Shown here: positions 852-45,981 of the stretch, piece after piece | Position numbering within the stretch: the first letter of the stretch is position 1 | Layout of the letters: every line of letters starts with the position of its first letter | DNA from: an uncultured Clostridium sp. | Lineage (GTDB): Bacteria; Bacillota; Clostridia; TANB77; CAG-508 | Direction of reading: 5' to 3' | DNA: 64,000 bases | NCBI GenBank assembly: GCA_945919455.1 | Contig: CAMEJH010000003.1 | Coordinates: 807 to 64,806, forward strand | Position numbers and translations under genes: made by a program | Notes under the pieces: model-generated | The model's database searches: none | What the model was told of the DNA's origin: nothing | The model's input: only the letters and a program-made list of their open reading frames with translations

Positions 852-916
852 CATAAATTGTTCCCGGTACTTTTTAACATTTTTATAAATTGTAAATTAG
901 TGCCGGTTCTTTTTTT
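852..916. repeat. Dispersed intergenic CCGG-core repeat, tandem pair (inverted orientation relative to the 17895 locus)
   Basis: The reverse complement reads aaaaaaagaaCCGGcactAATTTAC ... aaaaagtaCCGGgaacAATTTAT. It matches the units at 6812, 17895, 57279 and 59496. Confidence 0.6.
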
Positions 917-923
917 ATGTTTT

Positions 924-1961
924 TTATAAATCAAAATTTAAAAATACAAAATTTTTTAATATCAAAAAAGTATAAGTCGCAGAAATACAAGCATGGAGTA
1001 GTTTCCCTAAAATATAAGGTTTTATAGAAAGATCTGTTTTTGAAATAGTACTCCAAACTTGTAATAAAATAGAAATACCACCAAAACCTAAAAGAAAAGA
1101 AGCCATAATTATATTAATAGAAATTTTCTTTTCAGGAATATTACAAATTATATTCAAACCATTAGTAAGTTCTAAAATTCCAGAAATAAAACCAGAAGAA
1201 AAACTTTCAGGAATATTAAAAATACTAAGTAAAGGTTCAACACAATTAGATAAAGTTTCTAATAAATGACTAGTTTGTAAGATAGATATAATTACAGAAA
1301 AGAGTACAACAAAACCGCCAATTAATAAAATAGTGTTAATCGAACTAGTGATGCTAGCTCCTATAATTCCACCCAAATTAGATAAAGTAATATCATTATT
1401 TGAATATTTGAAAGATCCATTTGCATCAGATTTAGAATTATATTTCCAAAATCTAAAAATAATTCCAACTGTAATTGAAGCCAATATGTGTGAAATTAAT
1501 AGCAAAAAACCAATAGTAGAATTACCAAACATAGCAACTCCAACAGTTCCAACAATAAATAAAGGACCTGAATTATTAGTAAAACTTAATAATCTTTCAC
1601 ATTCTTCTTTTGAACAAATATTATTTTCACGAAAATTAGCAGCAATTTTAGCACCCATAGGATAGCCACTAATAATACCCATAATAAATGCAAAACTTCC
1701 TTCACCACGAACATTGAAAATAGGCTTCATAAATCTATTTAATAATTTACCAAGATAATATGTAAAATTAGTATGAGAAAGTAATTCTGTAGCAACGAAA
1801 AAAGGAAATAGAGATGGAACAACAGAATTTGCCCATAAAACAAGTCCATTTTTTGCAGCTAATAAATTGGTTCTAGAAAATATAACAAGACAAGCAGTAA
1901 ACATAATTAAAACAAAAGGTAATATAAGTTGATTTAATTTAAAAATATAAAAACGTTTCAT
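924..1961 (-). CDS. ylbJ: Sporulation integral membrane protein YlbJ (nucleoside-recognition/Gate domain family)
   Basis: 345-aa polytopic protein. The N-terminal signature AAKNGLVLWANSVVPSLFPFFVATELL is typical of YlbJ. A GGAGG-like RBS (ggaggtgtgtt) precedes the ATG on the minus strand. Confidence 0.7.
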   Translation of the reverse strand: MKRFYIFKLNQLILPFVLIMFTACLVIFSRTNLLAAKNGLVLWANSVVPSLFPFFVATELLSHTNFTYYLGKLLNRFMKPIFNVRGEGSFAFIMGIISGYPMGAKIAANFRENNICSKEECERLLSFTNNSGPLFIVGTVGVAMFGNSTIGFLLLISHILASITVGIIFRFWKYNSKSDANGSFKYSNNDITLSNLGGIIGASITSSINTILLIGGFVVLFSVIISILQTSHLLETLSNCVEPLLSIFNIPESFSSGFISGILELTNGLNIICNIPEKKISINIIMASFLLGFGGISILLQVWSTISKTDLSIKPYILGKLLHACISATYTFLILKNFVFLNFDL

Positions 1962-2091
1962 AACACACCTCCGTAAAATATATGAAATAGAATAAAATTT
2001 TAGTATAAAATATTTTATATTGATTAAAACATAGTAAAATCAGTGATTAGAAAAATATTCAAAAAAATCGAACATTTTTTTGAAAAAAGTA

Positions 2092-2120
2092 TTGACAAAA
2101 AATAAAAATGGATATAAAAT
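2092..2120 (+). promoter_or_regulatory. Sigma-A-type promoter candidate (TTGACA-17-TAAAAT)
   Basis: TTGACA at 2092-2097, a 17-nt spacer, then TAAAAT at 2115-2120, about 50 nt upstream of the 2169 ATG. Confidence 0.45.
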
Positions 2121-2168
2121 AAGAACAATAAAACGAACAAGAGTTCAAAAAACAAGGAGGAAATAACA

Positions 2169-2855
2169 ATGAGTATATTTGGAAAAAGAGAAAAAGTAAT
2201 AGCATATACAGTAAATAAAGCAGCAAACAAAGATATGTATATAACTGTACAAAATGGTGAAGTTGTAGTAAATGCACCATGGTATTTTTCATCAAATAAA
2301 ATACAAGAAATAGTTCAAGAAAAGAAAAACTGGATATTAAGTAAAATACAAGAATATGAAGAAAATATTCCAAATATACAATCTGTAAAAATATTTGGAA
2401 AAAACTATGATATAAAAGTAATATATAAAAATGTAAAGTCAACAGAATTAAATATAGAAGCAAATTCAGAAATAAACATAATATTACCAAATAAATATAA
2501 AAAAATAGGAAATGAACAAATATTAAAAATGTCAATTCAAAAAATGTATGAGCAAATAGCAAACAATGAAATTGAAGATATAATGGAAAAAGTTAGAATA
2601 ATGTTAGGCATTGCTCCAGAAGAATATAAAATATCACGAATTCAAAATACATTGGGAAAATGCATAGATGGAAAAACTATCATAATTAATCCTGAATTAA
2701 TGCAATTTAAAAGAGAAATAATAGAATATGTAGTAGCACATGAATTTTGTCATATAAAATATAAAACACATGGAAAAAAATTCTATGAAATAATTGAAAA
2801 AAATATTCCAAACTATAAAAAATATGAAAGAGAAATTCAAAATTACATATACTAA
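2169..2855 (+). CDS. YgjP-like metal-dependent hydrolase (DUF45 / M48-related zincin)
   Basis: C-terminal HExxH context VVAHEFCHIKYKTHGKKFYEIIEKNIPNYKKYE, typical of the DUF45 family. RBS aaggagg lies 7 nt upstream. Confidence 0.7.
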   Translation: MSIFGKREKVIAYTVNKAANKDMYITVQNGEVVVNAPWYFSSNKIQEIVQEKKNWILSKIQEYEENIPNIQSVKIFGKNYDIKVIYKNVKSTELNIEANSEINIILPNKYKKIGNEQILKMSIQKMYEQIANNEIEDIMEKVRIMLGIAPEEYKISRIQNTLGKCIDGKTIIINPELMQFKREIIEYVVAHEFCHIKYKTHGKKFYEIIEKNIPNYKKYEREIQNYIY

Positions 2856-2951
2856 AGAAAAAAGGTATTATCTTTACATAAAGATAATGCTTTTTTTTCA
2901 AAACTAATAGACAATTCTAAGAAAATGTGTTAATATATATAAGTGTAATAT

Positions 2952-3026
2952 TGGGGCATCGCCAAGCGGTAAGGCATCGGACTCTGACTCCGACATTCCT
3001 GTGTTCGAATCACAGTGCCCCAGCCA
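2952..3026 (+). tRNA. tRNA-Gln (anticodon CUG), CCA encoded
   Basis: Cloverleaf read by eye. Acceptor tggggca pairs with tgcccca. D-arm is gccaagcggtaaggc. The anticodon stem tcgga/tccga has loop ctCTGac. T-arm is gtgttcgaatcac. Discriminator G is followed by CCA. Confidence 0.85.
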
Positions 3027-3051
3027 AAAAAGAAAGGAAATGAAGCAAAAA

Positions 3052-4143
3052 ATGAAAATAGGAATAGTAGGGCTACCAAATGTAGGAAAAAGCACAATGT
3101 TTAACAGTATAACAAAAGCAGGAGCAGAATGTGCAAACTATCCATTTTGTACAATTGAACCAAATGTAGGTGTTGTAGCTGTTCCAGACGAAAGAATTGA
3201 CAACTTGGCAAAAATATATAATCCACAAAAAATAACAAAAGCGATAGTAGAATTTGTAGATATAGCTGGATTAGTAAGAGGTGCAAGCAAAGGTGAAGGA
3301 TTAGGAAACAAATTCTTATCACATATACGTGAAGTTGATGCAATAGCTCAAGTTGTAAGATGCTTTGAAGATTCTAATGTAATACATGTAGATGGAAGTG
3401 TAGATCCATTAAGAGATATTGAAACAATAAATTTAGAATTAATATTTGCAGATATGGAAACACTAGATAAAAGATTAGATAAAGCAAAAAAGAATTTAAA
3501 AGCAGACAAAAAATATCAAGCAGAAATAGATTTAATAGAAAAAATAAAAGCAAATCTAGAAAAAGGAATTCCAGTAAGGGCAATCGTTTTTAATGAAGAT
3601 GAACAAGAAATAGTAAAAGAAATGTTTTTATTAACAGCAAAACCTATAATATATATAGCAAATATATCAGAAGCTCAAATTGCAAATGCAGAAAATGAAG
3701 AAATGGTAAAACAAGTAAAAGAATATGCAGCAAAAGAAAATGCAGAAGTAATACCATTATGTGTAAAAATAGAAGAGGAATTATCTGGACTAGAAGAAAA
3801 TGATAAGAAAGAAATGCTAGAAGCATTAGGTCTAGAAGAATCAGGATTAGATAAATTAATAAAGAAAAGTTATGATTTATTAGGATTAATGTCATTTATA
3901 ACAGCTGGAGAACCAGAAGTTAGAGCATGGACAATAAAAAAAGGAACCAAAGCTCCAAAGGCTGCAGGAAAAATTCACTCTGATATAGAAAGAGGATTTA
4001 TAAAAGCCGAAATAGTTTCTTATGATGACTTAATGAGAGAAGGTTCAATGCTTGCTGCAAAAGAAAAAGGACTTGTAAGACAAGAAGGTAAAGAATATAT
4101 TATGCAAGATGGAGATATAGTACTTTTTAAATTTAATGTATAA
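3052..4143 (+). CDS. ychF: Redox-regulated ATPase YchF (Obg-family GTPase)
   Basis: MKIGIVGLPNVGKSTMFN P-loop, a TGS-like C-terminus and a full-length match to the YchF pattern. The track ORF start (3001, GTG) overlaps tRNA-Gln, so the internal ATG at 3052 is preferred (3040 is also possible). Confidence 0.9.
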   Translation: MKIGIVGLPNVGKSTMFNSITKAGAECANYPFCTIEPNVGVVAVPDERIDNLAKIYNPQKITKAIVEFVDIAGLVRGASKGEGLGNKFLSHIREVDAIAQVVRCFEDSNVIHVDGSVDPLRDIETINLELIFADMETLDKRLDKAKKNLKADKKYQAEIDLIEKIKANLEKGIPVRAIVFNEDEQEIVKEMFLLTAKPIIYIANISEAQIANAENEEMVKQVKEYAAKENAEVIPLCVKIEEELSGLEENDKKEMLEALGLEESGLDKLIKKSYDLLGLMSFITAGEPEVRAWTIKKGTKAPKAAGKIHSDIERGFIKAEIVSYDDLMREGSMLAAKEKGLVRQEGKEYIMQDGDIVLFKFNV

Positions 4144-4251
4144 AAAAATAAAAAAATATATAAAAAAACTTGCAATTATATAAAAAATGTAGTATAAATA
4201 TATAGAAGGGATAAAATACTACAGATAAGAAAATAGAAAGAGGTAGAAGAA

Positions 4252-4629
4252 ATGAAGAAAGAAAAATTATTAAAATTAATATTAGTTGCAATTATGGCAG
4301 TTGTATTATTAGGAATGTCAATAAATGTATTTGCAGCAACAACAAATGACGATGTTGATATAATAGATATTACAAACACAATAGGAACAAACACAAATAC
4401 AAATACTGGAAGTGGAACTGGTACTGGTGTAAATTTAAATACTAATACAGGAACAAATTCATTAAATACAAATCTTAATACAAGTACAGTAAACACTAAT
4501 AATAATTACAATACTAATTTGCCTCATACAGGTATAGCTGAAAACACAATGTTAGGAGTAGCATTAACAGTATTAGTAATAATTGCTATATATGCATACA
4601 GAAAAGTTAAATATTATACAAATATATAA
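4252..4629 (+). CDS. Small LPXTG-anchored surface protein with a Thr/Asn-rich low-complexity region
   Basis: Signal peptide MKKEKLLKLILVAIMAVVLLGMSINVFA. TN/TG-rich repeats. C-terminal sorting signal LPHTG plus a hydrophobic stretch plus RKVK. RBS agaggtagaag. Confidence 0.7.
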   Translation: MKKEKLLKLILVAIMAVVLLGMSINVFAATTNDDVDIIDITNTIGTNTNTNTGSGTGTGVNLNTNTGTNSLNTNLNTSTVNTNNNYNTNLPHTGIAENTMLGVALTVLVIIAIYAYRKVKYYTNI

Positions 4630-4644
4630 GAGAAAAGTAAAATA

Positions 4645-4835
4645 AAGGTTATCAACAGAGAAAATTAGTCACAGGCTGAGAACTAATTGTGAAAAACATA
4701 TTTGAAAAACTAACTCTTTAGATTTCTAGCGAACAAACTAGACGTGTAAGATGCGTTAAATCAAATTAAGTAAAAAATGGGATGGAACCGTGTAAAGCAC
4801 TCCTATAGGCATAAAGGTCTATAGGAGTGTTTTTG
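4645..4835 (+). promoter_or_regulatory. T-box leader (threonine specifier) controlling thrS
   Basis: AGAGA-like stem I element (cagagaaaa) and distal GCTGAGA. Candidate specifier ACU followed by A at 4709-4712. T-box core AATGGGATGGAACCGTG at 4776-4792. Terminator cactcctatag/ctataggagtg plus a T-run at 4798-4835, directly upstream of thrS. Confidence 0.75.
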
Positions 4836-4869
4836 TATGGTTTGCATTCGCAAAAAGGGAGGAATTATT

Positions 4870-6804
4870 ATGATTAAAGTAACACTAAAAGATGGAAAAG
4901 TATTAGAGGTAGAAGAAGGGAAAAACGTATTAGAAGTTGCAAAAGAAATAAGTGAAGGATTAGCAAGACAAGCTACATGTGCAGAAGTAAATGGAGAAAT
5001 AAAAGACTTAAGATATGAATTAAAAGAAGACTGCAAATTAAATATACATACATTTGAAAGCAGTGAAGATGGTAAAAAAGCTTATTGGCATACAGCATCT
5101 CATATATTAGCACAAGCAGTAAAAAGACTATATCCAAACACAAAATTAGGAATAGGACCAGCAATAGATAATGGATTTTACTATGATTTTAAAGTAGAAA
5201 AACCACTTACAGAAGAAGACCTAAATAAAATAGAAGAAGAAATGAAAAAAATAATAAAAGAAGACTTATCATTAGAAAGAAGTTCACTACCAAGAGCAGA
5301 AGCTATTAAATTAATGAAAGATAGAAAAGAAGACTATAAAGTTCAATTAATAGAAGAATTACCAGAAGGAGAAGAAATTTCTTTCTACAAACAAGGAGAA
5401 TATATTGATCTTTGTGCAGGACCACATATAGAAAGTACAGGAAAAATAAAAGCAATAAAACTATTATCAACATCAGCTGCTTACTGGAAAGGTAACCAAG
5501 AAAATGACTCAATGCAAAGAGTTTATGGAATAGCATTTCCAAAAGCTAGTTTACTTGAAGAACATTTAAAATTGTTAGAAGAAGCAAAAGAAAGAGATCA
5601 TAGAAAAATAGGAAAAGAATTGGAACTATTTATGACACATGAATTAGTTGGTTCAGGACTTCCAATGTATTTACCAAACGGAGCAAAAATAAGAATGATA
5701 CTAGAAAGATATATAGCAGATAAAGAGGTTGCATTAGGATATAAACATGTATATACACCATCACTTGCAAATGTAGAATTATATAAAACAAGTGGACACT
5801 GGGATCATTATAAAGATGATATGTTCCCACCAATGAAGCTAGACAATGAAGAAATAGTATTAAGACCAATGAACTGCCCACATCATATGTTAATATTCAA
5901 AAATAAGACACGTTCATATAGAGACCTACCAATACGTATTGGAGAACTAGCACATGACTTTAGATATGAAGCAAGTGGAAATGTATGTGGACTAGAAAGA
6001 GTAAGAGAAATGTGTCAAAATGATGCTCATCTTTTTGTAAGACCAGATCAAATAAAAGAAGAAGTTGGAAGAGTTGTAGAATTAATACTATCTGTATATA
6101 AAGACTTTGGATTTAAAGATTATACATTTAGATTATCATTAAGAGATCCAAAAGATAAGAAAAAGTATTTTGATGATGATAAAATGTGGGAAGATGCAGA
6201 AAGTCAATTAAGAGAAATTTTAAAAGAATTAAACTTAAATTTCTACGAAGCAGAAGGAGAAGCAGCTTTCTATGGACCAAAACTAGACGTACAAATAAAA
6301 ACAGCATTAGGACATGATGTAACAATATCAACATGTCAATTAGACTTCTTATTACCACGTAGATTTGAGTTATCATATGTAGGAGAAGACAACAAAGACC
6401 ATACACCAGTTGTAATACACAGAGCAATACTTGGAACATTTGATAGATTTATATCATTCTTAATAGAAGAAACAAAAGGTGCATTCCCAATATGGTTATC
6501 ACCAATACAAGCAAAAATATTACCAATAACAGATTCACAAAATGAATATGCAAATGAATTATTAATCAAATTACAAGCAAAAGGAATAAGAGCAGAAATA
6601 GATGATTCAAACGAAAAAATAGGTTATAAAATCAGAAAAGCTCAACTTGAAAAAGTTCCATATATGTTAGTACTAGGAGCAAAAGAAGTTGAAGCAAATG
6701 CAGTTGCAGTACGTTCAAGAAAAGCAGGAGACATTGGTCAAATGCCAATAGATGAATTTATTGCAAAAATACAAGAAGAAATTGAAACAAAAGCAATAGA
6801 CTAA
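4870..6804 (+). CDS. thrS: Threonine--tRNA ligase
   Basis: TGS N-terminus (MIKVTLKDGKVLEV), an editing domain and class II core motifs (RPMNCPHH, FRYEASG, QNDAHLF). RBS gggagg is upstream of the ATG at 4870. The track start at 4837 would lie inside the T-box terminator. Confidence 0.95.
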   Translation: MIKVTLKDGKVLEVEEGKNVLEVAKEISEGLARQATCAEVNGEIKDLRYELKEDCKLNIHTFESSEDGKKAYWHTASHILAQAVKRLYPNTKLGIGPAIDNGFYYDFKVEKPLTEEDLNKIEEEMKKIIKEDLSLERSSLPRAEAIKLMKDRKEDYKVQLIEELPEGEEISFYKQGEYIDLCAGPHIESTGKIKAIKLLSTSAAYWKGNQENDSMQRVYGIAFPKASLLEEHLKLLEEAKERDHRKIGKELELFMTHELVGSGLPMYLPNGAKIRMILERYIADKEVALGYKHVYTPSLANVELYKTSGHWDHYKDDMFPPMKLDNEEIVLRPMNCPHHMLIFKNKTRSYRDLPIRIGELAHDFRYEASGNVCGLERVREMCQNDAHLFVRPDQIKEEVGRVVELILSVYKDFGFKDYTFRLSLRDPKDKKKYFDDDKMWEDAESQLREILKELNLNFYEAEGEAAFYGPKLDVQIKTALGHDVTISTCQLDFLLPRRFELSYVGEDNKDHTPVVIHRAILGTFDRFISFLIEETKGAFPIWLSPIQAKILPITDSQNEYANELLIKLQAKGIRAEIDDSNEKIGYKIRKAQLEKVPYMLVLGAKEVEANAVAVRSRKAGDIGQMPIDEFIAKIQEEIETKAID

Positions 6805-9074: not shown

Positions 9075-10997
9075 TTATACAAATATATTATAAACTAAAG
9101 TAGTACACATACAAAGCAAAACACCACAAATAGTAGGAAGAACAAAAGCAAGAGCAGTCCATTTTAAACTACCAGTTTCTTTTTTTATAGAAAGCAAAGT
9201 AGTACCACAAGGAAAATGTAAAACAATAAAAATCATAACATTAATGGCAGTTAAAATAGTCCAACCATTTTGAATAAGAATATTACCAATAGCAAAAGTA
9301 TCATTTAAGTTACTTAAAGAAGTACCACCAAGATATCCCATCAAAATAATAGGAAGAACAATTTCATTTGCAGGAAGTGCTAATAAAAAGGCAGTTAAAA
9401 TATATCCATCAAGTCCCATAAGTTTTGCAAAAGGGTTTAAAAAGTTAGCAACAATACTAAGTAAACTAGAACCACCAATTCCAATATTGGCAAAAATCCA
9501 AATAACTAGCCCAGCAGGAACTGCAACACTTAAAGCTCTACCAAGAACAAAAATAGTTCTATCAAAAATAGATCTAACAATAATCTTTCCAAACTGCGGT
9601 TTTCTATAAGGAGGAAGTTCCAATACAAAAGAAGAGGGCATTCCTTTTAGAATAGTATGTGATAATAGTTTAGAGATTAGTAAAGACATTATTATTCCAA
9701 GTAAAATTACACAAACTACTGCTAATGTAGAAACAATAGAAGCGGTAAAACCTGTAAAACTAGCTGCTATAAAAATTGTAGCAATTGTAATTAAAAAAGG
9801 AAATCTACCATTACATGGAACAAATGCATTTGTCAAAATTGCAATTAAACGTTCTCGAGGAGAATCTATAATTTTGCATCCACAAACACCAGCTGCATTA
9901 CAACCAATCCCCATGCACATAGTAATCATTTGTTTACCATTAGTACATGCTTTTTTAAAGCACTTATCCATATTAAAAGCAATACGAGGTAAATAGCCCA
10001 AATCTTCCATAATAGTAAACAATGGAAAAAATATAGCCATCGGTGGTAGCATAACAGCAATAATCCAAGTAACAGTTTGATAAACTCCAAGAATAAGCAT
10101 AGAAGAAAGCCACTCAGGCATATGTATAGTTTTAGCGCCAATAATTAATTTTTCTTGGAGCCAGCTAAAAAAATTAGAAAGGATAGAAGATGGATAATTT
10201 GCTCCAACAATAGTAATCCAAAAAATCAATCCTAAAAAGAGTAACATGATTGGAATTCCTAAAGTTTTTGATGTAAGAACTTTGTCAATATTTCGAGTAA
10301 AAGAAGTATAATCACTTCTTTCAAAAGAGCAAACCTTATCACATATTTCTTCACAATGTTTTATAATAATAGAAGGAATTTCATCTGAAGTAACACCATC
10401 TGGATAAACAATTTTCTTTGGGCACATAGCAGTTTCTCCAGAGCAGACTTTGTATATAGTATTTAGCAAATTATCAAGAGTTTTTTTCTTTCTAGCAGTA
10501 GTTCCAACAACAGGAACGCCAAGTAGATCTGAAAGCAGATCTAAATCAATTTTAATTTTTTTCTTTTTAGCTTCATCAAGTAAATTAACACAAACAATAA
10601 CATTAGGAGTAATATCCATAATTTGAAAAACTAAATTTAAATTTCTTTCTAAGCAAGTAGCATCAACAACTACAACTGTAGCATCAGAAATATCAGAACG
10701 AATAAAATCACTTGCTATTTCTTCTTCTTTAGAATGAGTAGTAATAGAATAAGTTCCAGGAATATCAACAAACAAAAATTTTTTATCTAGATATGTACAC
10801 TGACCGGCAGCATTACTAACAGTTTTTCCAGTCCAATTGCCAGTATGTTGATTCATACCAGTTAAACCATTAAAAACAGTAGACTTTCCAACATTAGGAT
10901 TACCAGCGAGAGTAATAGTAAAATCAGCTTGATCCTTTAAAAGGGTAAAATTTTCGTTTAATAAATTAGAACCAGTAGAAGCAGATGTTAGTCCCAT
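9075..10997 (-). CDS. feoB: Ferrous iron transporter FeoB
   Basis: N-terminal G-domain (GNPNVGKSTVFN, DIPGTYS) followed by a polytopic permease with Gate motifs. 640 aa. No feoA is visible upstream. Confidence 0.9.
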   Translation of the reverse strand: MGLTSASTGSNLLNENFTLLKDQADFTITLAGNPNVGKSTVFNGLTGMNQHTGNWTGKTVSNAAGQCTYLDKKFLFVDIPGTYSITTHSKEEEIASDFIRSDISDATVVVVDATCLERNLNLVFQIMDITPNVIVCVNLLDEAKKKKIKIDLDLLSDLLGVPVVGTTARKKKTLDNLLNTIYKVCSGETAMCPKKIVYPDGVTSDEIPSIIIKHCEEICDKVCSFERSDYTSFTRNIDKVLTSKTLGIPIMLLFLGLIFWITIVGANYPSSILSNFFSWLQEKLIIGAKTIHMPEWLSSMLILGVYQTVTWIIAVMLPPMAIFFPLFTIMEDLGYLPRIAFNMDKCFKKACTNGKQMITMCMGIGCNAAGVCGCKIIDSPRERLIAILTNAFVPCNGRFPFLITIATIFIAASFTGFTASIVSTLAVVCVILLGIIMSLLISKLLSHTILKGMPSSFVLELPPYRKPQFGKIIVRSIFDRTIFVLGRALSVAVPAGLVIWIFANIGIGGSSLLSIVANFLNPFAKLMGLDGYILTAFLLALPANEIVLPIILMGYLGGTSLSNLNDTFAIGNILIQNGWTILTAINVMIFIVLHFPCGTTLLSIKKETGSLKWTALAFVLPTICGVLLCMCTTLVYNIFV

Positions 10998-11105: not shown

Positions 11106-12422
11106 ATGAATATTAGATTATGTAGAAAAAAAGGTAACCCAACAAGAAAAGGAAAATATATAGATAAAGAAATAGCAGTACAACTTATAGAAATAAGCAG
11201 AGGAGTAAGAGCTTTTAGAGAAAAAAAATATGCCAAAGCAGCACAATATTTAGAAAAAAAAGCTCAAAATCCAAAGGCAACAGACCGTATAAAATTTATT
11301 GTTGGAGCAAGTTATACAGAAATAAAAGTACATGAAAAAGAAGCAGCAGATTTATTAAAATCAATAATTCAAAAATATAAAGATGATCCTAAAGAAAAAA
11401 GGCCATTAGTGTATTCTGGAGCAATGCTAGAATATGCAAAGATTCAATTAAGAAATGACCTAACCGAATTTGCAATATATCTTTTAGAAGACATAACAAT
11501 ACAAAACGGAAAAGAAAACTTATATGCATTAACAGAATTGGCACAAGCATATGATATGCAAGCACAAGTTTTAAGGGAAAAAGAAAAAAATGAAGAAGCA
11601 TTAGAGGCAGAAAAAAAAGCAGAAAAAACATGTTTAAAATGCAAAGAACTATCAATAGGAAATCCAAAACTAATAAAAGTAACACTTTCAGCAAGAACAT
11701 TATTGGGAATATTGTATATAAGACAAGGTAGAATTTCTATGGCTGAACAAGAATTTAGTGCAGTAAAAGTAATTTGTCCAGAAAGCAAAATAAAAAGTAA
11801 TTTATCTGATATGAATTATATAGAATTATTCAAACACACGTATTTTAAAGAAGAAAGCGAAGAAGATGTTAACAAAAGAATAAAAAGATTAGAAAAAAAA
11901 TTAGAAGCAATAGAGAATGGTGAAGAAGAGCAGAAAAAAGAATATGCAAGAGAACTAAATGCAGTAAGCAGAATAGAATATTATGAAGAATTATCACCAG
12001 AATTAAAAATATCTAATGGAATAGACATATTTGCTGGATTCAAAATGTATGAATATCCAAGTAAAGGAATATGTGTTATAGACAAAATATTTAGTGAAAT
12101 AAAAGATGGAAAAAAAATAGTAGGAACAACATATATATTCCCATTAAATATAACATTTGAATTAACAAAATTATCTAGATATGAAGTATTAAAAATGCTT
12201 TCAACAGAAAATAGCATACAAAAACAAGAACATAAAGGAGACTATTACAATTTAGTTCAAGAAAAAATGAAAAGAGCTGAACTAGAAGGTTTAATTATAG
12301 AAGAAAAGGGATTAAAAGAAAAAGAAGAAGAGATAGAAAAATTGACCAAAAGAAAAGAACAATTAGAAAAAGAATTAAATGGAAAAATTCCAGAAGAAAA
12401 CAAAAAAGAAGGAGAACAATAA
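11106..12422 (+). CDS. Hypothetical protein, helical-repeat (TPR-like) N-half and Glu/Lys-rich coiled-coil tail
   Basis: 438-aa ORF with coding-like composition. I recognise no catalytic motif. Confidence 0.5.
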   Translation: MNIRLCRKKGNPTRKGKYIDKEIAVQLIEISRGVRAFREKKYAKAAQYLEKKAQNPKATDRIKFIVGASYTEIKVHEKEAADLLKSIIQKYKDDPKEKRPLVYSGAMLEYAKIQLRNDLTEFAIYLLEDITIQNGKENLYALTELAQAYDMQAQVLREKEKNEEALEAEKKAEKTCLKCKELSIGNPKLIKVTLSARTLLGILYIRQGRISMAEQEFSAVKVICPESKIKSNLSDMNYIELFKHTYFKEESEEDVNKRIKRLEKKLEAIENGEEEQKKEYARELNAVSRIEYYEELSPELKISNGIDIFAGFKMYEYPSKGICVIDKIFSEIKDGKKIVGTTYIFPLNITFELTKLSRYEVLKMLSTENSIQKQEHKGDYYNLVQEKMKRAELEGLIIEEKGLKEKEEEIEKLTKRKEQLEKELNGKIPEENKKEGEQ

Positions 12423-12441
12423 ATTGGATAATAATAAATGG

Positions 12442-13287
12442 ATGATTGTAAAAAAAGAAAAAATGTCAACTAAAATAAAAAACTATTTTAAAAATATTTT
12501 TTCTAAAATATTGAATCAAGGCAAGAAAAATAAAAATAAATCAAAAGGAATATGGCCAAAAAAACAACAAGAACCAGTAAATATTAACCATAATAATGAA
12601 ATAAAAGAGAAAACTAAAAAAACAGAACATATGCAACAACCGAAATCTAAAACAGTAGTTGAACAAACAAAAGGAAAAAAAGAAATAACAATTGAAGTTA
12701 AACCAAATAAAAGAAAACCAAGAGAAATAGTAATAGAATATGAGAACAAAAACAAACCTAAGAAAAAAGAAATTGTTGTTGAATATGAACATAAAAATAA
12801 AAAAGTACAAAATGTTAAGCCAAAGCCAACTGAAGCAAATGTTAATAGCAAAAATCAAGTAAAAAAAGAAATAAAAGTAGAGCAACAACCTGTAAAGCAA
12901 AATAAAATACAATTAGAAACAAAACCAATAAAAGTAGAAGTAAAACAGAAAAACACTATAAAAAAACAGGTTAAAGAACAAAAAAAAGAAGAACCACAAT
13001 TAGCATTAAAACCAGTTAAGCCAAAAAAAGAAAAAAAACCGATTAATATTAATATTAATATATTCCAGTTATTTAAAGATAAAGAAAGAAAGAAAAGAAA
13101 AGAAATTTTAAATAGAATTAGAGAAAATAAAGTTGATGATTATGAAACTATATCTACAAAAGCCAAACTATCAAAAGGAAGTATAGCAGTTGATGATGTT
13201 GATGCAAATGAATTAGATCCACTTATAGATTTATATAGAGATAGTAATACTAAACTAAGAAATAGGATAAAAGAATCTCAACAATAA
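12442..13287 (+). CDS. Lysine-rich low-complexity protein with internal repeats
   Basis: Repeat units K(P)REIVIEYENKNK / KKEIVVEYEHKNK. The start is uncertain (ATGs at 12379, 12442 and 12463, none with a strong RBS). Confidence 0.45.
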   Translation: MIVKKEKMSTKIKNYFKNIFSKILNQGKKNKNKSKGIWPKKQQEPVNINHNNEIKEKTKKTEHMQQPKSKTVVEQTKGKKEITIEVKPNKRKPREIVIEYENKNKPKKKEIVVEYEHKNKKVQNVKPKPTEANVNSKNQVKKEIKVEQQPVKQNKIQLETKPIKVEVKQKNTIKKQVKEQKKEEPQLALKPVKPKKEKKPINININIFQLFKDKERKKRKEILNRIRENKVDDYETISTKAKLSKGSIAVDDVDANELDPLIDLYRDSNTKLRNRIKESQQ

Positions 13288-13321
13288 AAAAAGCGACAGA
13301 GAATTCTCTGTCGCTTTTTTA
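13286..13321. terminator. Bidirectional rho-independent terminator
   Basis: Stem gcgacagag (13293-13301), loop aatt, stem ctctgtcgc (13306-13314). It is flanked by an A-run and a T-run and sits between convergent genes. Confidence 0.85.
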
Positions 13322-13332
13322 GGAGTTACCTC

Positions 13333-14289
13333 TTATCCCAAAACCCTGAAAGCATCCAAGATTTTGGAAACAGCATCCAGCTTGGAGGCAACCTCGACGG
13401 GGTCGAATCCGGTGTCCTTAACCTTGTTGCAAACATCCAGAAAAGCCTCAAAGACTTCAGGATTTGCAACTACGTCACTGGACGTAAGCTGCCTGGAAAC
13501 AGTTTCGGAAGCATTTTCTTCGGGCTTTGCTTCTTCAACCTTGGGAGTCTCGGGAGCAGTAGGAACCTCAGCTTCGGCAGGCTGCTGTTCAGTGTTGCGG
13601 TCCTGATGTTCCTGGAGCATTTGACCAAGGTTTGCCATAGGAGTATTGGGCTTCGAAAGCTTTCGCTTTTCTTCCCACATTGCGGAAAAAAGATCAGCAA
13701 TCTGCTGGGCATATGGCTTGAGGTAAAGGGCCTCTTCGTAGCCGAAGTGCAGGCTGCGGATTCCGCCAAAGTAATTTTCCTCACGAGGATTTTTCAGAAG
13801 AGCAAGGGTTCGACTGATAGTGTCCTCTGTGTAACAGTTGACAAGAGCCGAGCATGCACGGAAGACGATCACCGTAGTGATAATGTCTTGACCAGTAGCA
13901 TTGTTGAAAGCTTCAAAAGCTTCCTTGCAACTGTCCGGGACAGAAACTTCGGGGAAATTGCTGATGAGATTACGCTGATAGCGCAGCTCATTTCTGAAAG
14001 ACTTGACAAGGTCTTCAGAGATGAAGTCAACATTTTCGGCTTCCTCTTCCGAGACGGTGGCAGGATCAATGGAAGTGAATCCAAAGGTCCGCAGTACCAA
14101 CTCGGGTTTGTAGGTGAGCTTCCAGATAGTGCTCAAAGCCGTTTCTGCAGTCATGGAGTTGACTGAAAGAACAGCCTGGACAAACTTGTCATGGAGTTCC
14201 TCGGGAATTTTGTCTCCAAACTTCTTAGGACGGAACTGAATATCAGTGCTGGTGATGGGCTGAGAAGTAATAATGATGTCGTTGTTCAT
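13333..14289 (-). CDS. Hypothetical protein encoded by a compositionally foreign (high-GC) gene
   Basis: 318-aa ORF with RBS aggagg 7 nt upstream of the ATG and an AT-rich promoter-like region containing tataat at 14290-14345. GC is about 45-47% in two hand-counted 60-nt samples, against about 25% in the flank. The protein has a Pro/Glu/Ala-rich linker (EQQPAEAEVPTAPETPKVEEAKPEE) between two domains. Confidence 0.75.
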   Translation of the reverse strand: MNNDIIITSQPITSTDIQFRPKKFGDKIPEELHDKFVQAVLSVNSMTAETALSTIWKLTYKPELVLRTFGFTSIDPATVSEEEAENVDFISEDLVKSFRNELRYQRNLISNFPEVSVPDSCKEAFEAFNNATGQDIITTVIVFRACSALVNCYTEDTISRTLALLKNPREENYFGGIRSLHFGYEEALYLKPYAQQIADLFSAMWEEKRKLSKPNTPMANLGQMLQEHQDRNTEQQPAEAEVPTAPETPKVEEAKPEENASETVSRQLTSSDVVANPEVFEAFLDVCNKVKDTGFDPVEVASKLDAVSKILDAFRVLG

Positions 14290-14382
14290 AGAGCAACCTC
14301 CTAAAAATAAATATTGTATACATAATATTATACTATATTTTCTAAATTATGTCAATTTGGTTCATCTTTAGGAATAAAATGA

Positions 14383-15523
14383 CTATGCTAAAATAGCACT
14401 CAAAACTAAAATTCCTAAATTATCAGAATAAATTTTGTCAAATTGATAAAGAGGAAGAGGACTTTGGCCTAAGCCAACTTCAATTGTATATCCAGGCCTA
14501 TTAAAATCTTGAATAAACCAATCTTTATATCCTGCAAAACTAGAGTTATATGGAGTACTCTCAAGAGAATAACCACTAACAATGGATAATTGAGTACCTA
14601 TATAAAATGCTCTAGGAGGATTGTAATTTTGAAATTGCCAGTAAATAACTTCTCCTTGTGCATGATATGCCAAAATAAGTCTAAAATTATGTCTAAGCGT
14701 AAAATTATATACCGCAAGAGATTCTGGTTCAGTAAGAGGTCCGAAAACCAACAAAATCACGAGGTGCTGGTTGAGTAAATCCTTGTGAAAATTTAATTTG
14801 CTTTGCTTGTTCCCAGCCAGCAGGAAATTGTAAATTTAAATCTATACCTCTAATATTTGCTTTCCATCCATCAGTAAAAGGAATAGAAGGATAATTATTT
14901 GCAATTCTTTGAGCAGATAGATACAAAGGAGAACCCACAGGAATCTCACCAGTAACTAAATCTACACCATCAGGATTAACCATAGGAATGATATAAATAG
15001 TAGCATTATCATATAAACTTCTGGCAGAATAACCAAATATAGATAAATTGTTCTGATAAGTATAACAATAATCAGCCAGAAATTTCATTAGCACAACAGA
15101 AGTAATCCATTCATTTGCATGGAAAGAAGCAGAATAAAAGACTTCTTTTTGACCACGACCAATTTTAATATAAGGAATATTTTTACCTAAAACACTTTTT
15201 CCAGCAGAACCTATGCTTATAAAAGGATAAAGCATTCTTAAAGAATTTAAATTAATATTTAAAATACTAGAACTATAACTGATATTAGTTGGAATAATAA
15301 ATCCAAGAGCGCCATTAATATAAGGAGATAAAGCATTCCAAGTAGTAGCTCCAACAATGCCATCAGGAAAAAGTCCAAAATTTCTTTGAAAAGCTAAAAC
15401 AGCATAAAGAGTAGTAGTACCAAAAATTCCATCAATAATTCCAGTATAAAATCCAAGTTTTTGCAACAAATTTTGTAAAAATTCTACCATTGGACCAGTA
15501 GATCCAAGCCTTAAAGTTTTCAT
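14383..15523 (-). pseudogene. Gamma-D-glutamyl-meso-diaminopimelate peptidase (M14 family with N-terminal peptidoglycan-binding domain), interrupted by a frameshift
   Basis: ORF 14729..15523 carries PG_binding_1 ([29 protein letters not shown]) and the zinc motif HANEW. ORF 14383..14760 continues in another frame with the conserved C-half ([31 protein letters not shown]). The two ORFs overlap at 14729-14760. Confidence 0.75.
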
Positions 15524-15779: not shown

Positions 15780-16439
15780 ATGGTTATAACTAAGGCAGAA
15801 CCAGCAAATGGTGTGCATCGGATTGTTGTTGATAGTGATATAAAAGTGAAAATGTCTGGGTGCAATACAAATGAAATAATTGCTTGTGTTTATGGTGTAA
15901 GTATGGAGGATAAAGAGGCTAAACTTTCTGTTACGAGATTTGGCGATGAAATAATGGTATTTGTAAGAGCAGGAAAGCCTACGAATAGCAGAGTGTCTGG
16001 CAAAGAGGGGAGTGCTAATGTAGTTGGCTCGGATAAAGAAAGTGGTTTTACTCTGAATGTTCAAATACCTACTAAAGTATTTGAAAAGATCTATGTTAAA
16101 AGCAAAAATTCTAACATTGACCTGAAATCTTCTGTTCATGCTAATACCATTACAGCTGATAATAAAAACGGAAATGTTTATATATCAGCGATTTTTAAAA
16201 CACTTAATATCGATTGTGAAAATGGCAATGTTGAGGTTGATACAGAAGCGTGTGGTGACATCAAATTGAATATTACAAACAAAAATGGTAATGTTGATGT
16301 AATTATTGAAAACATTGGTGTTTATGAAGTATTGGTTGATTCTAAGAATGGCACTTGCAGAAACAATCCAAAATTAAAAGGAAAATATACCGTGTCTGGT
16401 TATATTATGACTAGAAATGGTCATACGAAAATTCACTAA
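15780..16439 (+). CDS. DUF4097-like beta-strand repeat protein (putative adhesin family)
   Basis: Repeated KNGNVxV / ENGNVEV strands typical of DUF4097. RBS aggagg. GC is somewhat higher than the surroundings. Confidence 0.6.
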   Translation: MVITKAEPANGVHRIVVDSDIKVKMSGCNTNEIIACVYGVSMEDKEAKLSVTRFGDEIMVFVRAGKPTNSRVSGKEGSANVVGSDKESGFTLNVQIPTKVFEKIYVKSKNSNIDLKSSVHANTITADNKNGNVYISAIFKTLNIDCENGNVEVDTEACGDIKLNITNKNGNVDVIIENIGVYEVLVDSKNGTCRNNPKLKGKYTVSGYIMTRNGHTKIH

Positions 16440-17496: not shown

Positions 17497-17850
17497 TGGT
17501 GGAGATGAGGAGAGTCGAACTCCTGTCCATAATACTTTCCACACAAACTTCTCCGAGTGCAGTTTGTTATTAAAATTCATTTAACGATCATTAACAAACA
17601 AACGACGGTTAAATATATCTATATAAGTACCCACTGTTCCTATAGAAAAAACAGCTTTGTTTCCCACTAAAATGACACCAAATTAAAATATGTGGGGATA
17701 CTTTAACAGGCGTTGCCGCAACTAGGCAGCAAATGCTAATTCTCTATTATCAGCGTTTATATTTAAATTTCCCGTTTTTTTAAGTGGCCAACGAGAATCC
17801 ACTACTCGCTATTCATGCTTCTGGTATAATGTCGAAACCATTACATCCCC
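17497..17850 (-). ncRNA. ssrA: tmRNA (SsrA)
   Basis: On the minus strand the 5' end is GGGGATGTAATGGTTTCGAC and the 3' end is GGAGTTCGACTCTCCTCATCTCCACCA (tRNA-Ala-like). The internal tag reading frame ends ...GAU AAU AGA GAA UUA GCA UUU GCU GCC UAG (..DNRELAFAA*). A downstream hairpin acacagg/cctgtgt is followed by a T-run. Confidence 0.9.
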
Positions 17851-18587: not shown

Positions 18588-20939
18588 TTATTTTATTTTC
18601 AAATTAACAACAGTAACTCCCGTTTCGCCTTCGCCAAAAGTACCAAGTCTAAAAGAATCTACAAGCTTATTTGTTTTTAAAAATTTATGAATGCCATTGC
18701 GTAATGCACCAGTGCCTTTACCATGAACAATACGAACAGGGGAAAGTTTTGCCATAAAACAATCATCTAAATATTTATCAACAATTGGAATTGCTTCGTC
18801 AACGGTTAAACCTAAAAGATTAATTTCAGGGCTAACTGATTGAGATTTTAAAGAAGAACGCTTTGTATAAGCATAATCTTGTTTATTAGATGAATGCTTA
18901 GCTTCTTGCAAATATTTAATATTAACATTCATTTTCATAGCTCCAATTTGAACTTGAACAGTGTTATCTTTTGAAATGTTAGAAAGAACAACACCATCAG
19001 CATTTAAATTAGAAACAAAAACATTTAAATTAGGTTTAATATTTTCTCTAGGAATTGAATGACTAACTTGTACATCTTCTATATTAGTTTTTACAGAAGC
19101 AATTTGTTCATTCAATTTATTTCTAAGTTTATTAGCTTGAGACATAGAAGATGAAGAGTTTAGCTCTTTTATAATTGAATTTGCGGTTTCTTTTGCATCA
19201 ATAAGAATTTGCTTAGCTTCTTGCTTTGCATTTGCAATTAATTCTTTTTCTTTATTTAGAACATCAGAAGTTTGATGCTTTAGATTTTTCTTTAATTCTT
19301 CAGCTTCTTTTAAGGCTGCAGATGTTTTTTCTTTTTCATTTTCAATTTGTGCTTGAGTATCATAAATGCTTTTTAACAAGTCTTCAAAATTAATAGTGTC
19401 TTTATCAAGTCTAGAAGAAGCTCGAGCGATAATATCTTCACTTAAACCAAGTTTTCTGCTAATAGCAAAAGCATTGCTTTTTCCTGGAATTCCTATTAAA
19501 AGTCTGTAAGTTGGTTTTAAATTTTCAATATCAAATTCAACACTAGCATTTTTAAAATTAGGAGTAACTAGTGCATATTTTTTTAATTCTTGATAATGAG
19601 AAGTAGAAACAGTTATAGCGCCTAATTCTGAAAAATATTGTAAAATGCTAATTGCAAGATTAGCACCTTCAAGAGGATCTGTTCCAGAACCTAGCTCATC
19701 AAGAAGAATAAGACTTTCTTTAGTTGCTGTATGAGTAATATTTATAATGTTACTCATATGAGAAGAAAAAGTACTTAAAGACTCACTAATACTTTGTTCA
19801 TCACCAATATCTGCAAATATATGGTCAAAAACATAAATACTAGAATGTTCATCTGCTGGAATGTTCAAACCACTGCAAGCCATTGCAGTTAAAAGCCCAA
19901 TAGTTTTTAGTGTTACTGTTTTTCCACCAGTATTAGGACCAGTAATTACCAAACTAGAAAAATCTTTTCCTAATTCTAATGAAATTGGAATAACAACAGA
20001 TTGATCAATAAGGGGATGTCTTGCATTTTTTAAAACTACTAATTTATCATCATTTATTTCTGGTGTACTACAATTATAATCTAAAGAAAAATGAGCTTTT
20101 GCAAAAATAAAGTCAAGTTTTCCTATAATTTCTACATTATTTTTTAATTCTTTTGTATATGGATATAATAAACCACTTAAATTTTGTAAAATTCTTTCTA
20201 TTTCTAAACTTTCTTCGATATGTAAATTAGAAAGTTCATTATTTAAATCAAAAACAGCAATAGGCTCAATAAAAATAGTAGAACCACTGCTAGAAACATC
20301 ATGTACAAACCCTTTAATATTTCCGCGATATTCTTCTTTAACAGGTATTACAAAACGACCATTACGAATTGTAACAATATTTTCTCTAATATATTTTGAA
20401 TAAGTAGAAGAATGCAATATAACATTAAGCTTAGAACGAATATCTTGTTCAATTTTTCTTTGTCTTCTACGAATATCTTGTAATTTGCTAGAAGCAGAAT
20501 CTGCAATAGTTTCTTCATCAAGAATAGATTTCATAAAAATTGAAAGCATACTTGGATTTACATATAAATCAGTAAAGTAATGTTCAACAGCAGAAAAATC
20601 TGATGAAGTAAGATAATCTTTTTCAAAATAGTCTTTCAAATCAGAAGACATTTGTAAAATATTTTGTAACTCTAATAGAGCCTTAATACTTAATGTACCA
20701 CATCCATCTAGAGTTTTTAAATAAACTGTTATATCTGCAATTTCACCTAAAGGTGGTGTACTATTTCTTTGAATAAGTACAACACCTTGGCTTGTTTCGT
20801 CAAGCATTTTTTGAACTTCTAATTTATCTTGTGATGGACGAAGCTCAAGAGCATATTTTTTTCCAATATAAGTTTTACAATAGCTTGAAATTTTTTCTAA
20901 AATTATATTATATTCTAATTTGTTTAAATTATTATTCAT
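18588..20939 (-). CDS. mutS2: Endonuclease MutS2
   Basis: MutS ATPase Walker A GPNTGGKT, DELGSGTD, and a C-terminal Smr domain (VRIVHGKGTGALR). RBS ggagg supports the start at 20939 rather than 20957. Confidence 0.9.
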   Translation of the reverse strand: MNNNLNKLEYNIILEKISSYCKTYIGKKYALELRPSQDKLEVQKMLDETSQGVVLIQRNSTPPLGEIADITVYLKTLDGCGTLSIKALLELQNILQMSSDLKDYFEKDYLTSSDFSAVEHYFTDLYVNPSMLSIFMKSILDEETIADSASSKLQDIRRRQRKIEQDIRSKLNVILHSSTYSKYIRENIVTIRNGRFVIPVKEEYRGNIKGFVHDVSSSGSTIFIEPIAVFDLNNELSNLHIEESLEIERILQNLSGLLYPYTKELKNNVEIIGKLDFIFAKAHFSLDYNCSTPEINDDKLVVLKNARHPLIDQSVVIPISLELGKDFSSLVITGPNTGGKTVTLKTIGLLTAMACSGLNIPADEHSSIYVFDHIFADIGDEQSISESLSTFSSHMSNIINITHTATKESLILLDELGSGTDPLEGANLAISILQYFSELGAITVSTSHYQELKKYALVTPNFKNASVEFDIENLKPTYRLLIGIPGKSNAFAISRKLGLSEDIIARASSRLDKDTINFEDLLKSIYDTQAQIENEKEKTSAALKEAEELKKNLKHQTSDVLNKEKELIANAKQEAKQILIDAKETANSIIKELNSSSSMSQANKLRNKLNEQIASVKTNIEDVQVSHSIPRENIKPNLNVFVSNLNADGVVLSNISKDNTVQVQIGAMKMNVNIKYLQEAKHSSNKQDYAYTKRSSLKSQSVSPEINLLGLTVDEAIPIVDKYLDDCFMAKLSPVRIVHGKGTGALRNGIHKFLKTNKLVDSFRLGTFGEGETGVTVVNLKIK

Positions 20940-21060
20940 TTTAACCTCCGAACACATATATTATGCCACAAAAATGCTTAAAATTCAATATATTTGCTTT
21001 TTTAGCAAAAATATATTATAATAAATATATTACTTTTTGAATAAAAGGGGGACAAAGAAA

Positions 21061-39401: not shown

Positions 39402-39407
39402 TACAAT

Positions 39408-39428
39408 AAGGGCATGTAAAATGCCCTT
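39408..39428 (+). terminator. Intra-operon hairpin (possible attenuator or processing site)
   Basis: aagggcat (39408-39415) pairs with atgccctt (39421-39428). No T-run follows. Confidence 0.3.
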
Positions 39429-39479
39429 ACTGTGAAGTTTTAATACATTATTAGAAATAAGAAAGGAAGAAAAAACAAT

Positions 39480-40166: not shown

Positions 40167-40179
40167 AAGGAGAATTAGA

Positions 40180-41046: not shown

Positions 41047-41050
41047 GAAA

Positions 41051-43039: not shown

Positions 43040-43073
43040 GAATTTTAAGAGCATAGGAGGTGTTTTTATATAA

Positions 43074-45140: not shown

Positions 45141-45155
45141 AATCAGGAGGTTTAG

Positions 45156-45959: not shown

Positions 45960-45981
45960 TATATGTGAAAGGAAATTATAG

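Follow-up and report, generated by a model that had tools for sequence, protein, structure and literature searches.

A 64-kb stretch of DNA from an uncultured Clostridium species (contig CAMEJH010000003.1; "the window" below) carries on its minus strand, at 13333-14289, a gene whose base composition differs sharply from that of everything around it. The gene encodes a protein of an orphan family and, together with its own promoter and terminator, makes up a compact cassette with the following parts.

14327 to 14355, minus strand: sigma-A promoter with the exact consensus TTGACA-17 nt-TATAAT (-35 at 14350-14355, -10 at 14327-14332; score 12/12).
14290 to 14320, minus strand: 5' untranslated region (UTR) of about 31 nt, with the Shine-Dalgarno (SD) sequence AGGAGG (CCTCCT on the plus strand, 14297-14302) and the 5' arm of a UTR pairing at 14290-14307.
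13333 to 14289, minus strand: open reading frame (ORF) of 318 amino acids, GC-rich and poor in codons ending in A (NNA), for an acidic, predicted all-helical protein of an orphan family.
13316 to 13333, minus strand: 3'UTR arm complementary to the SD region (anti-SD ...ACUCCUAAAAA), found as inverted repeat I6 and by RNAduplex.
13287 to 13320, minus strand: intrinsic terminator, a 17-bp perfect palindrome between A and T runs (inverted repeat I3).

The length given for the 5'UTR assumes a transcription start about 7 nt past the -10 hexamer. AGGAGG lies 7 nt before the ATG. The 3'UTR arm overlaps the last base of the stop codon, continues directly downstream and abuts the terminator, which, as judged from its symmetry, can be used in both directions and so be common to the cassette and a convergent gene for a Lys-rich protein.

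The ORF contains 459 G or C among 957 nucleotides (48.0%). The remaining 957-nt windows of the stretch average 26.5% (standard deviation 2.65, maximum 33.1%), placing the ORF about 8 standard deviations out, and the per-kilobase profile outside the gene stays between 20 and 32%. At third codon positions the G+C fraction (GC3) is 0.52, compared with 0.05-0.24 in about 55 other window genes, those for S6, SSB, trigger factor, ClpP and ClpX included; one small doubtful ORF reaches 0.365. The anomaly was first noticed in a first-pass annotation made by eye, whose hand counts (27/60 and 28/60 inside the gene, 15/60 in the flank) recount exactly. That annotation placed the shift at the ORF boundaries, and sliding 30-nt windows agree: it is confined to the ORF, and each transition falls no more than about 30 nt from the stop or start codon. 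A chimeric assembly is unlikely, because an independent assembly, L068, is 96.6% identical to the window over both gene junctions and three further assemblies with a sister allele (L004-L006) have the same architecture.

High G+C also opens long spurious ORFs. Four exist, and they occupy three other frames rather than the four first reported. They raise the idea that the composition is imposed by an overlapping second function, either an antisense protein gene or a structured non-coding RNA. The in-phase antisense frame stays open over 277 of its 319 codons, there are long ORFs in alternative frames, and avoidance of NNA codons does remove antisense stop codons. In other alleles, however, up to 14 codons that create stops interrupt the antisense frame, at positions that are not conserved, which led to rejection of an antisense ORF as the cause. 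Insertions and deletions come in multiples of three and motif conservation tracks the sense frame, the gene's nonsynonymous-to-synonymous divergence ratio (dN/dS) is 0.24-0.29, and a search of Rfam with the gene and its UTRs returned no match. An overlapping function is exceedingly improbable.

The gene belongs to a sizeable family. A protein search returned 48 relatives, none with a name or Pfam domain, and a profile search of 1.84 billion representatives returned 332 clusters at 50% identity, a lower bound for the family, all of about 300-360 amino acids; the sources checked gave no name for any cluster member. From genomes and metagenomes 69 loci were collected, which represent about 30 independent alleles or contexts. 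All loci come from AT-rich Clostridia that have not been cultured, Clostridium sp. CAG:245 among them, and the human gut is the source of most. The G+C content of the gene exceeds that of its surroundings at every locus (0.32-0.50 versus 0.19-0.33 in the flanks), and in 12 of 12 species-representative genomes it is the top-GC window of its size in its locus (z 2.9-10.9). Many loci keep the order HPF - MutS2 - SpoVT - transfer-messenger RNA (tmRNA) ... M14 peptidase - gene - threonyl-tRNA synthetase (ThrRS) - YchF. The syntenic neighbors are 75-98% identical in protein, and the gene itself is only 31-36% identical. In some lineages the cassette lies between unrelated housekeeping genes; the nearest thing to a conserved partner is the frequent adjacency to the M14 peptidase.

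This distribution bears on the interpretation first given to the locus, recent acquisition of a foreign gene. Of four marks of a recently acquired island, the cassette shows one, the atypical composition and codon usage described above. Close relatives neither lack the gene nor carry it at ordinary composition, as all related loci have excess GC. No integrase, transposase or flanking direct repeat was found at the cassette borders, where the notable repeat is only the inverted SD/anti-SD pair. No donor pool of matching composition came to light: IMG/VR, the INPHARED phages and the PLSDB plasmids hold no family copy, and no GC-rich, donor-like context was found for the family. The single GC-rich flank among the contexts is that of a metagenome contig, L055, which changes abruptly from about 65% (1-4150) to about 33% G+C (4200-6664) some 600 nt upstream of the cassette; in all likelihood this contig is a chimera and not a donor context. 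The annotation's remark that integrase, transposase, tRNA and direct repeats are lacking nearby stands for what it named, with the qualification that a tmRNA gene lies 3.2 kb away. Its foreign-gene reading stands in part, in that the compositional break is real and the cassette is exchanged horizontally, but a recent one-off import from a GC-richer donor does not fit. The observation that the annotation itself had named as contrary to acquisition was made, since relatives in all of the roughly 30 AT-rich contexts show excess GC, often in synteny.

Several properties indicate long residence in the clade. The tetranucleotide GATC is depleted in the family (ratio 0.47) as it is in host genes (0.41), and the balance of G and C at third positions roughly tracks the sign of the local GC skew in most loci, though not in all. 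Between the window and L004 alleles synonymous divergence (dS) is about 0.96, yet GC3 is about 0.52-0.53 in both; if GC3 had been decaying neutrally toward the genomic value of about 0.12, the ancestor would, by our own calculation, have needed an impossible GC3 above 1. The excess GC is an intrinsic, long-maintained property of the whole family and not a trace of recent foreign origin.

A more elaborate version of the import idea has the cassette arriving repeatedly from an unsampled reservoir of about 50% G+C (phage, plasmid or another lineage) and then partially ameliorating, with high-GC alleles as recent arrivals and low-GC alleles as older ones. Allele G+C does range from 0.32 to 0.50 independently of host G+C, with values of 0.37, 0.41 and 0.44 within one species; the alleles predate the species that carry them; and some copies lie near Mob_Pre, KilA-N or TraC/VirB4-like genes. 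The architecture, too, recalls phage morons, autonomous promoter-gene-terminator units of deviant G+C (PMC3594210): the cassette is a single gene with its own sigma-70-type promoter and terminator and a G+C content unlike its neighbors. Unlike a moron, it lies outside any phage or prophage, among housekeeping genes (FeoB, ThrRS, YchF, MutS2, SpoVT and M14 peptidase) and with no match in PHROG, IMG/VR or INPHARED, and all relatives have it at a conserved chromosomal position, where it is replaced allele for allele rather than being present or absent. Against repeated import also stand the uniformly AT-rich contexts, the empty phage and plasmid collections, the host-like GATC avoidance, the general agreement with local skew, the persistence of GC3 over a dS of about 0.96 and the near equality of polymorphisms in the two directions (counts below). 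Moreover, donor composition would not preserve the strand-specific bias described below. Repeated import is unlikely.

Comparison of alleles within species demonstrates how the locus varies. Genomes L001 and L025 have flanks that are 99.5% identical over 7.3 kb (dS 0.003 for ThrRS and 0.013 for YchF), and between them the protein of the gene is 41-45% identical and its synonymous sites are saturated. Just past the terminator, where the convergent ThrRS gene has its 3' end, identity returns to 100%, and upstream the divergence begins at the stop codon of the M14 peptidase. Because such divergent alleles sit in flanks that are 99.5% identical, the whole cassette must have been swapped. A third allele class (L009, L026) has flanks 94.5-96% identical, and a second species, the CAG:245 group, has two classes that are 45% identical between flanks of 95-98% identity. 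One species complex thus has three allele classes and another has two, each recurring in several independent assemblies. The locus is multi-allelic within species, and whole cassettes, from promoter to terminator, are replaced between conserved flanking genes. The cassettes are old alleles exchanged by recombination in the flanks, within an AT-rich clade.

Flagellin fliC and the O-antigen and capsule loci are multi-allelic antigen-type loci replaced through flanking homologous recombination. The cassette resembles them in having deeply divergent alleles between near-identical flanks within one species, a deviant composition and, as predicted here, high expression. It differs in being a single small gene without visible signal peptide, flagellin domain or glycosyl-transferase content and with no sign that its product reaches the cell surface. 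Within an allele class the nucleotide diversity of the gene is no higher than that of the flanks, which rules out hypermutation. The dN/dS of 0.24-0.29, compared with 0.01-0.2 in neighboring genes, shows that the protein is under purifying selection, yet with relaxed or diversifying constraint. The deep alleles within species suggest negative frequency-dependent selection on the protein, exerted by phage or host.

A recombining locus also invites an explanation at the DNA level, in which GC-biased gene conversion at a recombination hot spot, or a local change in mutation due to extreme transcription or to head-on encounters of replication with transcription, raises the G+C content. The alleles are indeed replaced by recombination, and in the window the gene is on the lagging strand, with a perfect promoter in front of it. 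Polarized changes between the window and L068 number 10 from AT to GC and 2 from GC to AT, small numbers that depend on distant outgroups. Set against this, the flanks, where crossovers must fall, are not GC-rich, alleles about 55% diverged cannot form heteroduplex within the gene, and diversity within an allele class does not exceed that of the flanks. Head-on orientation was rejected as a cause because five lineages carry the gene co-directionally with replication and it is still GC-rich there. As the bias is also specific to the sense strand rather than strand-symmetric, a DNA-level process is very unlikely.

The evidence for strand specificity comes from codon usage. TTA, ATA and CTA are entirely missing from the gene, compared with window genes overall, and AAA is replaced by AAG, CAA by CAG and AGA by CGN; C occupies 0.32 of third positions versus 0.05 in window genes. 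The window also has a strong replication-strand asymmetry of A and T at four-fold degenerate sites: the A fraction at these sites (A4) is about 0.65-0.8 in plus-strand genes and the T fraction (T4) about 0.5-0.7 in minus-strand genes, a difference seen window-wide, for example when FeoB (9075-10997) and MutS2 (18588-20957) are compared with plus-strand genes. Because of this asymmetry, codon-usage comparisons in this genome need strand matching. A strand-matched control at first pointed to plain GC enrichment plus replication skew, a reading overturned by loci in which the cassette lies on the opposite replication strand. There, same-strand neighbors have A4 of 0.55-0.63 and T4 of 0.30-0.33, and the gene has A4 of 0.22-0.31 and T4 of 0.41-0.58. 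Avoidance of NNA codons therefore tracks the sense strand, that is, the transcript, on either replication strand. This speaks against gene conversion, duplex-level effects and donor composition as full explanations, and points to selection on the transcript rather than inherited donor composition.

Ordinary translational selection does not account for the bias either. In SSB, Tig, S6 and ClpP the shift is the reverse: A4 is 0.64-0.84, and Lys, Gln and Glu codons that end in G are at 0.03-0.09, versus 0.57 for these codons in the gene. The sole agreement with highly expressed genes is in C-ending two-fold codons, which reach 0.58 in the gene and 0.25-0.32 in S6, SSB and Tig. Major-codon bias was rejected because the family boxes and Lys, Gln and Glu shift the wrong way.

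The bias extends beyond codon choice to nucleotide context. Compared with the expectation from synonymous-codon shuffles, runs made only of A and T are depleted in the family, increasingly so with length:

Runs of 4: observed/expected 0.90 (z -6.1) in the family, 0.99 in controls.
Runs of 6: observed/expected 0.73 (z -6.2) in the family, 0.98 in controls.
Runs of 8: observed/expected 0.565 (z -4.0) in the family, 0.94 in controls.

Runs of 6 are depleted in 19 of 20 alleles. The most depleted tetramers are TTAA, ATTA, TATT, TAAT and ATAA, plus GATC. The synonymous-site bias is thus sense-strand-specific, opposite to that of other highly expressed genes and marked by a context-dependent avoidance of A/T-only runs. 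GATC is scarce throughout the genome: in 144 control genes taken from the window and L001-L036 it reaches 0.41 of what synonymous shuffles predict (z -12). This suggests a long-standing restriction pressure of the DpnII/MboI type in the clade.

An explanation at the codon level holds that codons rare in the genome (NNY and NNG in place of NNA; no TTA, ATA or AGA) direct translation to little-used tRNA isoacceptors; translation would then hold up while the main tRNAs lack their amino acids, for example during starvation, or be gated by a rare tRNA in the manner of bldA/TTA. Elf and colleagues reportedly provided the precedent for isoacceptor charging in 2003. In Streptomyces, bldA and TTA codons constitute a rare-codon developmental control; the cassette gene is similarly enriched in codons rare for its genome, but its bias affects all codon families and adds nucleotide-context effects, and no dedicated tRNA was identified. 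The sense-strand specificity of NNA avoidance, its consistency between alleles, the near absence of ATA and TTA, the preference for AAG and CAG and the shift opposite to other highly expressed genes all agree with such a role, as does a tRNA-Gln(CUG) gene in the window, where CAG makes up 9% of Gln codons. Yet tRNA preference predicts neither the context-dependent loss of A/T-only runs at codon junctions nor the pairing of the UTRs, GAA and GGA are still common, and the choice between C- and G-ending codons is not fixed, varying by allele roughly with the sign of the local GC skew. A codon-level explanation is, on this balance, rather unlikely.

The expression signals of the cassette are conserved. 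The first-pass annotation had recorded a promoter with tataat and an AGGAGG ribosome-binding site; both are present, and the promoter is better than claimed, an exact 12/12. The only other 12/12 promoter in the window, at 52280-52308, precedes two tRNA-Gly genes and the S6 operon. Among 63 copies examined, the window copy counted, 61 have an exact promoter 19-62 nt upstream of the ATG; of the remaining two, one has a promoter that scores 11/12 and the other is a truncated fragment. An exact promoter also lies directly upstream of the gene in L063-L067. The promoter hexamers are kept while spacers and surroundings have diverged beyond alignment, and all copies have an (A)GGAGG consensus SD. The terminator hairpin is different in sequence in each allele and equal in strength. 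A conserved 5'-terminal stabilizer hairpin was considered and rejected, as it is present in some lineages only and mostly not significant. Downstream of the 52280-52308 promoter, on the plus strand, are tRNA-Gly(UCC) genes at 52328-52401 and 52430-52503 and the S6 and SSB genes at 52574-53361.

The two ends of the transcript are predicted to pair. Inverted repeat I6, which the first-pass annotation overlooked, is an 18-nt pair, 83% complementary, that joins 14290-14307 with 13316-13333 and brackets the ORF exactly. RNAduplex gives the window 5'UTR:3'UTR duplex an energy of -17.8 kcal/mol (z -3.4 against shuffles). Predicted energies for four other alleles are:

L025: -20.8 kcal/mol.
L039: -19.4 kcal/mol.
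L007: -17.2 kcal/mol.
L001: -14.7 kcal/mol.

Pairing energies are mostly -12 to -21 kcal/mol, with a mean z of -2.1 in 23 alleles and z below -2 in 9 of the 23. Among 94 SD-bearing control genes of the same genomes the mean z is -0.12, 4% fall below -2 and 5% reach -13 kcal/mol. The nucleotides paired outside the SD vary by allele yet stay complementary, in allele-specific compensatory extensions.

A precedent is the Bacillus subtilis hbs mRNA, which encodes HBsu; it has a strong SD, and a 14-bp interaction of its 5' and 3'UTRs just upstream of the terminator limits RNase Y cleavage (Braun, Durand & Condon 2017, PMC5737220). Complementarity of the hbs type, taken as at least about 10-14 bp between 5' and 3'UTR next to the terminator and above that of other genes, is found in the cassette. 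Both transcripts are monocistronic, with a strong SD and a 5'UTR that pairs with a terminator-adjacent 3'UTR, at an energy of -19 kcal/mol in hbs and a predicted -12 to -21 kcal/mol in most cassettes; hbs is highly expressed, as the cassette is predicted to be. They differ in that the cassette pairing covers the SD itself with a 3' arm that starts at the stop codon, and in that the cassette body is recoded to be GC-rich and AU-poor, which is not reported of hbs. The proteins are unrelated, an acidic orphan in the cassette and basic HU in hbs.

The body of the mRNA also has distinctive properties. Its predicted folding, per 150 nt, has about twice the stability seen in other genes, with z scores of -2.4 to -5.3 against synonymous shuffles in 7 of 7 alleles tested. 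RNase Y is the main decay-initiating endonuclease of Firmicutes. It favors a cut between G and A in AU-rich, GC-depleted, weakly structured RNA (PMC11780869). GA dinucleotides in an AU-rich context number 0 per kb in the gene and 12-62 in other genes. The motif of another endoribonuclease, EndoA (UACAU), was assessed as a raw count only, with 8 in 19.6 kb.

Taken together, a promoter of the tRNA class, a consensus SD, UTR pairing and a strong terminator fit selection for output and nuclease resistance. The explanation that we favor, at about even odds, is selection at the mRNA level, for stability and RNase resistance, on an extremely highly expressed and diversifying gene. The cassette would be transcribed at a level like that of tRNA genes, and selection would act on the mRNA itself. 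A GC-rich, structured, AU-poor body closed by hbs-like pairing of its UTRs would make a poor substrate for exonucleases and for endoribonucleases that seek AU, such as RNase Y, and so could give very high, robust protein output amid an AU-rich transcriptome. More speculatively, a ribosome terminating at the stop codon, next to which the 3' arm lies, would disrupt the pairing and release the SD, which could couple stability and re-initiation to ongoing translation.

Several observations weigh against selection for mRNA stability. S6, SSB and Tig lie behind strong signals yet are not GC-rich, and therefore very high expression alone does not force this composition. Some control genes have folding z scores as low as those of the cassette (Tig -6.1, MutS2 -4.2), and the deficit of RNase-Y-like GA sites is no larger than codon composition predicts. 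Pairing of the UTRs is weak or missing in L009, L018 and L036, and where it occurs, occlusion of the SD could repress translation rather than stabilize the mRNA. Promoter strength and transcript ends are derived from sequence. Polymorphisms within allele classes number 74 from G or C to A or T and 66 in the reverse direction, a comparison of low power, especially for low-GC alleles.

A related proposal treats the transcript as a "privileged" mRNA: AU-poor, NNA-depleted and end-closed, it would be made and translated while the bulk AU-rich transcriptome is destroyed or stalled, and its hypervariable protein would be a new phage-interacting or defense factor in an arms race. Activation of an endoribonuclease toxin or abortive-infection system, or phage takeover, would be the trigger, and ribosomes terminating at the neighboring stop codon would open the SD:anti-SD lock. 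This proposal is distinctly unlikely.

For the protein itself, domain, profile and fold searches gave nothing credible, in line with the first-pass observation that no motif could be recognized. The product and 109 diverse family members have no match in Pfam, NCBIfam, PHROGs or PADLOC, the best Foldseek E-values are about 1 against the Protein Data Bank (PDB) and 0.19 against BFVD, and PDB profile matches are not credible. An AlphaFold2 model (mean predicted local distance difference test score 79) shows residues from about 20 to 232 as a helical N-domain, residues 234-265 as a disordered acidic Pro/Glu/Ala linker and residues 270-317 as a small C-terminal helical bundle, with the first 14 residues disordered; it supports the layout of N-terminal region, Pro/Glu/Ala linker and helical C-terminus proposed from sequence inspection. 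Invariant residues are R20, K23, F24, W56, E101-L102-R103, Q105, F112, L165, G175-G176-I177-R178 and L180. Two Cys are nearly invariant, and RNELRYQR and FGGIRSL are conserved as motifs in the family alignment. Acidic over its whole length (isoelectric point about 4.7), the protein is soluble (grand average of hydropathy -0.37). Neither the sequence nor the AlphaFold2 model shows a signal peptide or transmembrane segment, although no dedicated predictor was run, and export by a non-classical route is conceivable. The modeled product thus appears to be an orphan, acidic, all-helical protein of cytoplasmic type. In the widespread group of uncultured Clostridia of the human gut that carries it, few proteins are probably more abundant.

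In our assessment the locus is a feature of a new kind: a hypervariable orphan cassette whose expression signals are extreme and whose "foreign" composition probably reflects selection on the transcript. Deviant G+C is routinely taken as a sign of recent horizontal transfer; a gene 5-24 points above its genome throughout a clade, apparently through selection on the transcript, is a counter-example. The family also provides a natural experiment on synonymous sites in extremely AT-rich bacteria. The combination of perfect promoter, closure of the SD by the 3'UTR and AU-poor body suggests a naturally evolved layout that maximizes expression and resists nucleases in low-GC Firmicutes, possibly useful for engineering Clostridia. 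With more than 300 clusters, no name, no detectable fold relatives and hypervariability at the strain level, the protein is likely to have a central part in how strains interact with one another, with phage or with the host.

The genes around the cassette are variable in their own ways. Its conserved left border is the following gene, identified by Pfam, synteny and frameshift analysis.

14383 to 15523, minus strand: frameshift-split gene for an M14 peptidase with PG_binding_1 domain, at the left edge of the variable cassette.

The corresponding coordinates in other loci are 6979-7885 in L001, 3740-4343 in L004, 8976-9864 in L009 and 4281-5226 in L025. The frameshift follows DFVG[FY] in the window and L004 and QGFT in L001, L009 and L025, the two sites lying within about 10 codons of each other. 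The peptidase is intact in L010, L011 and L063 (155-1072). Its downstream half is under purifying selection (dN/dS 0.04-0.15), and the frameshift could reflect programmed frameshifting, a functional split or recurrent recent decay. In L025 a GNAT acetyltransferase gene (5282-5803, minus strand) lies between the peptidase and the cassette; it is missing in the other allele class of the same species.

Farther along, a DUF4097 ("toastrack") gene at 15780-16439 on the plus strand, present only in the lineage of the window, has an extended -10 promoter and an AGGAGG SD. Its A4 is 0.24, versus about 0.65-0.8 in other plus-strand genes, its four-fold G fraction is 0.17 and its GC3 is 0.24, which may reflect a weaker case of NNA avoidance or a recent inversion or insertion. 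The tmRNA gene noted above, 3.2 kb from the cassette, is at 17497-17850 on the minus strand; its counterparts are at 5300-5650 in L001, 9194-9555 in L018 and 8894-9255 in L036. In many lineages the distance is 0.1-3 kb, and in Clostridium sp. CAG:245 the two are directly adjacent, with no associated integrase.

On the other side, between FeoB and the cassette, 11106-13287 (plus strand) encodes a TPR-like protein of 438 amino acids and a very Lys-rich, repetitive protein of 302 amino acids. This pair occurs only in the lineage of the window and in L004 and L064, whose Lys-rich proteins show 64-74% identity, and it is missing in L001-type genomes, where ThrRS abuts the cassette. The interval from ThrRS to tmRNA is a hot spot for variation.

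Genes for secretion or filament assembly occur in two settings. On the 7.1-kb contig L063, from a host of 18.6% G+C, the intact M14 peptidase gene and a cassette of 32% G+C are followed by TraC-like, VirB4/TraG-like and ParA genes. They suggest no link of the cassette to secretion, as the TraC/VirB4-like neighbors in L063 are not homologous to the Tad-like cluster of the window. The latter, a type IV filament cluster at 38181-48739 on the plus strand, encodes a SAF-domain CpaB-like protein, ParA/CpaE-like proteins and a T2SSE-family ATPase, together with five paralogous pilin-like genes whose products all start MENATKALLIAAGV.

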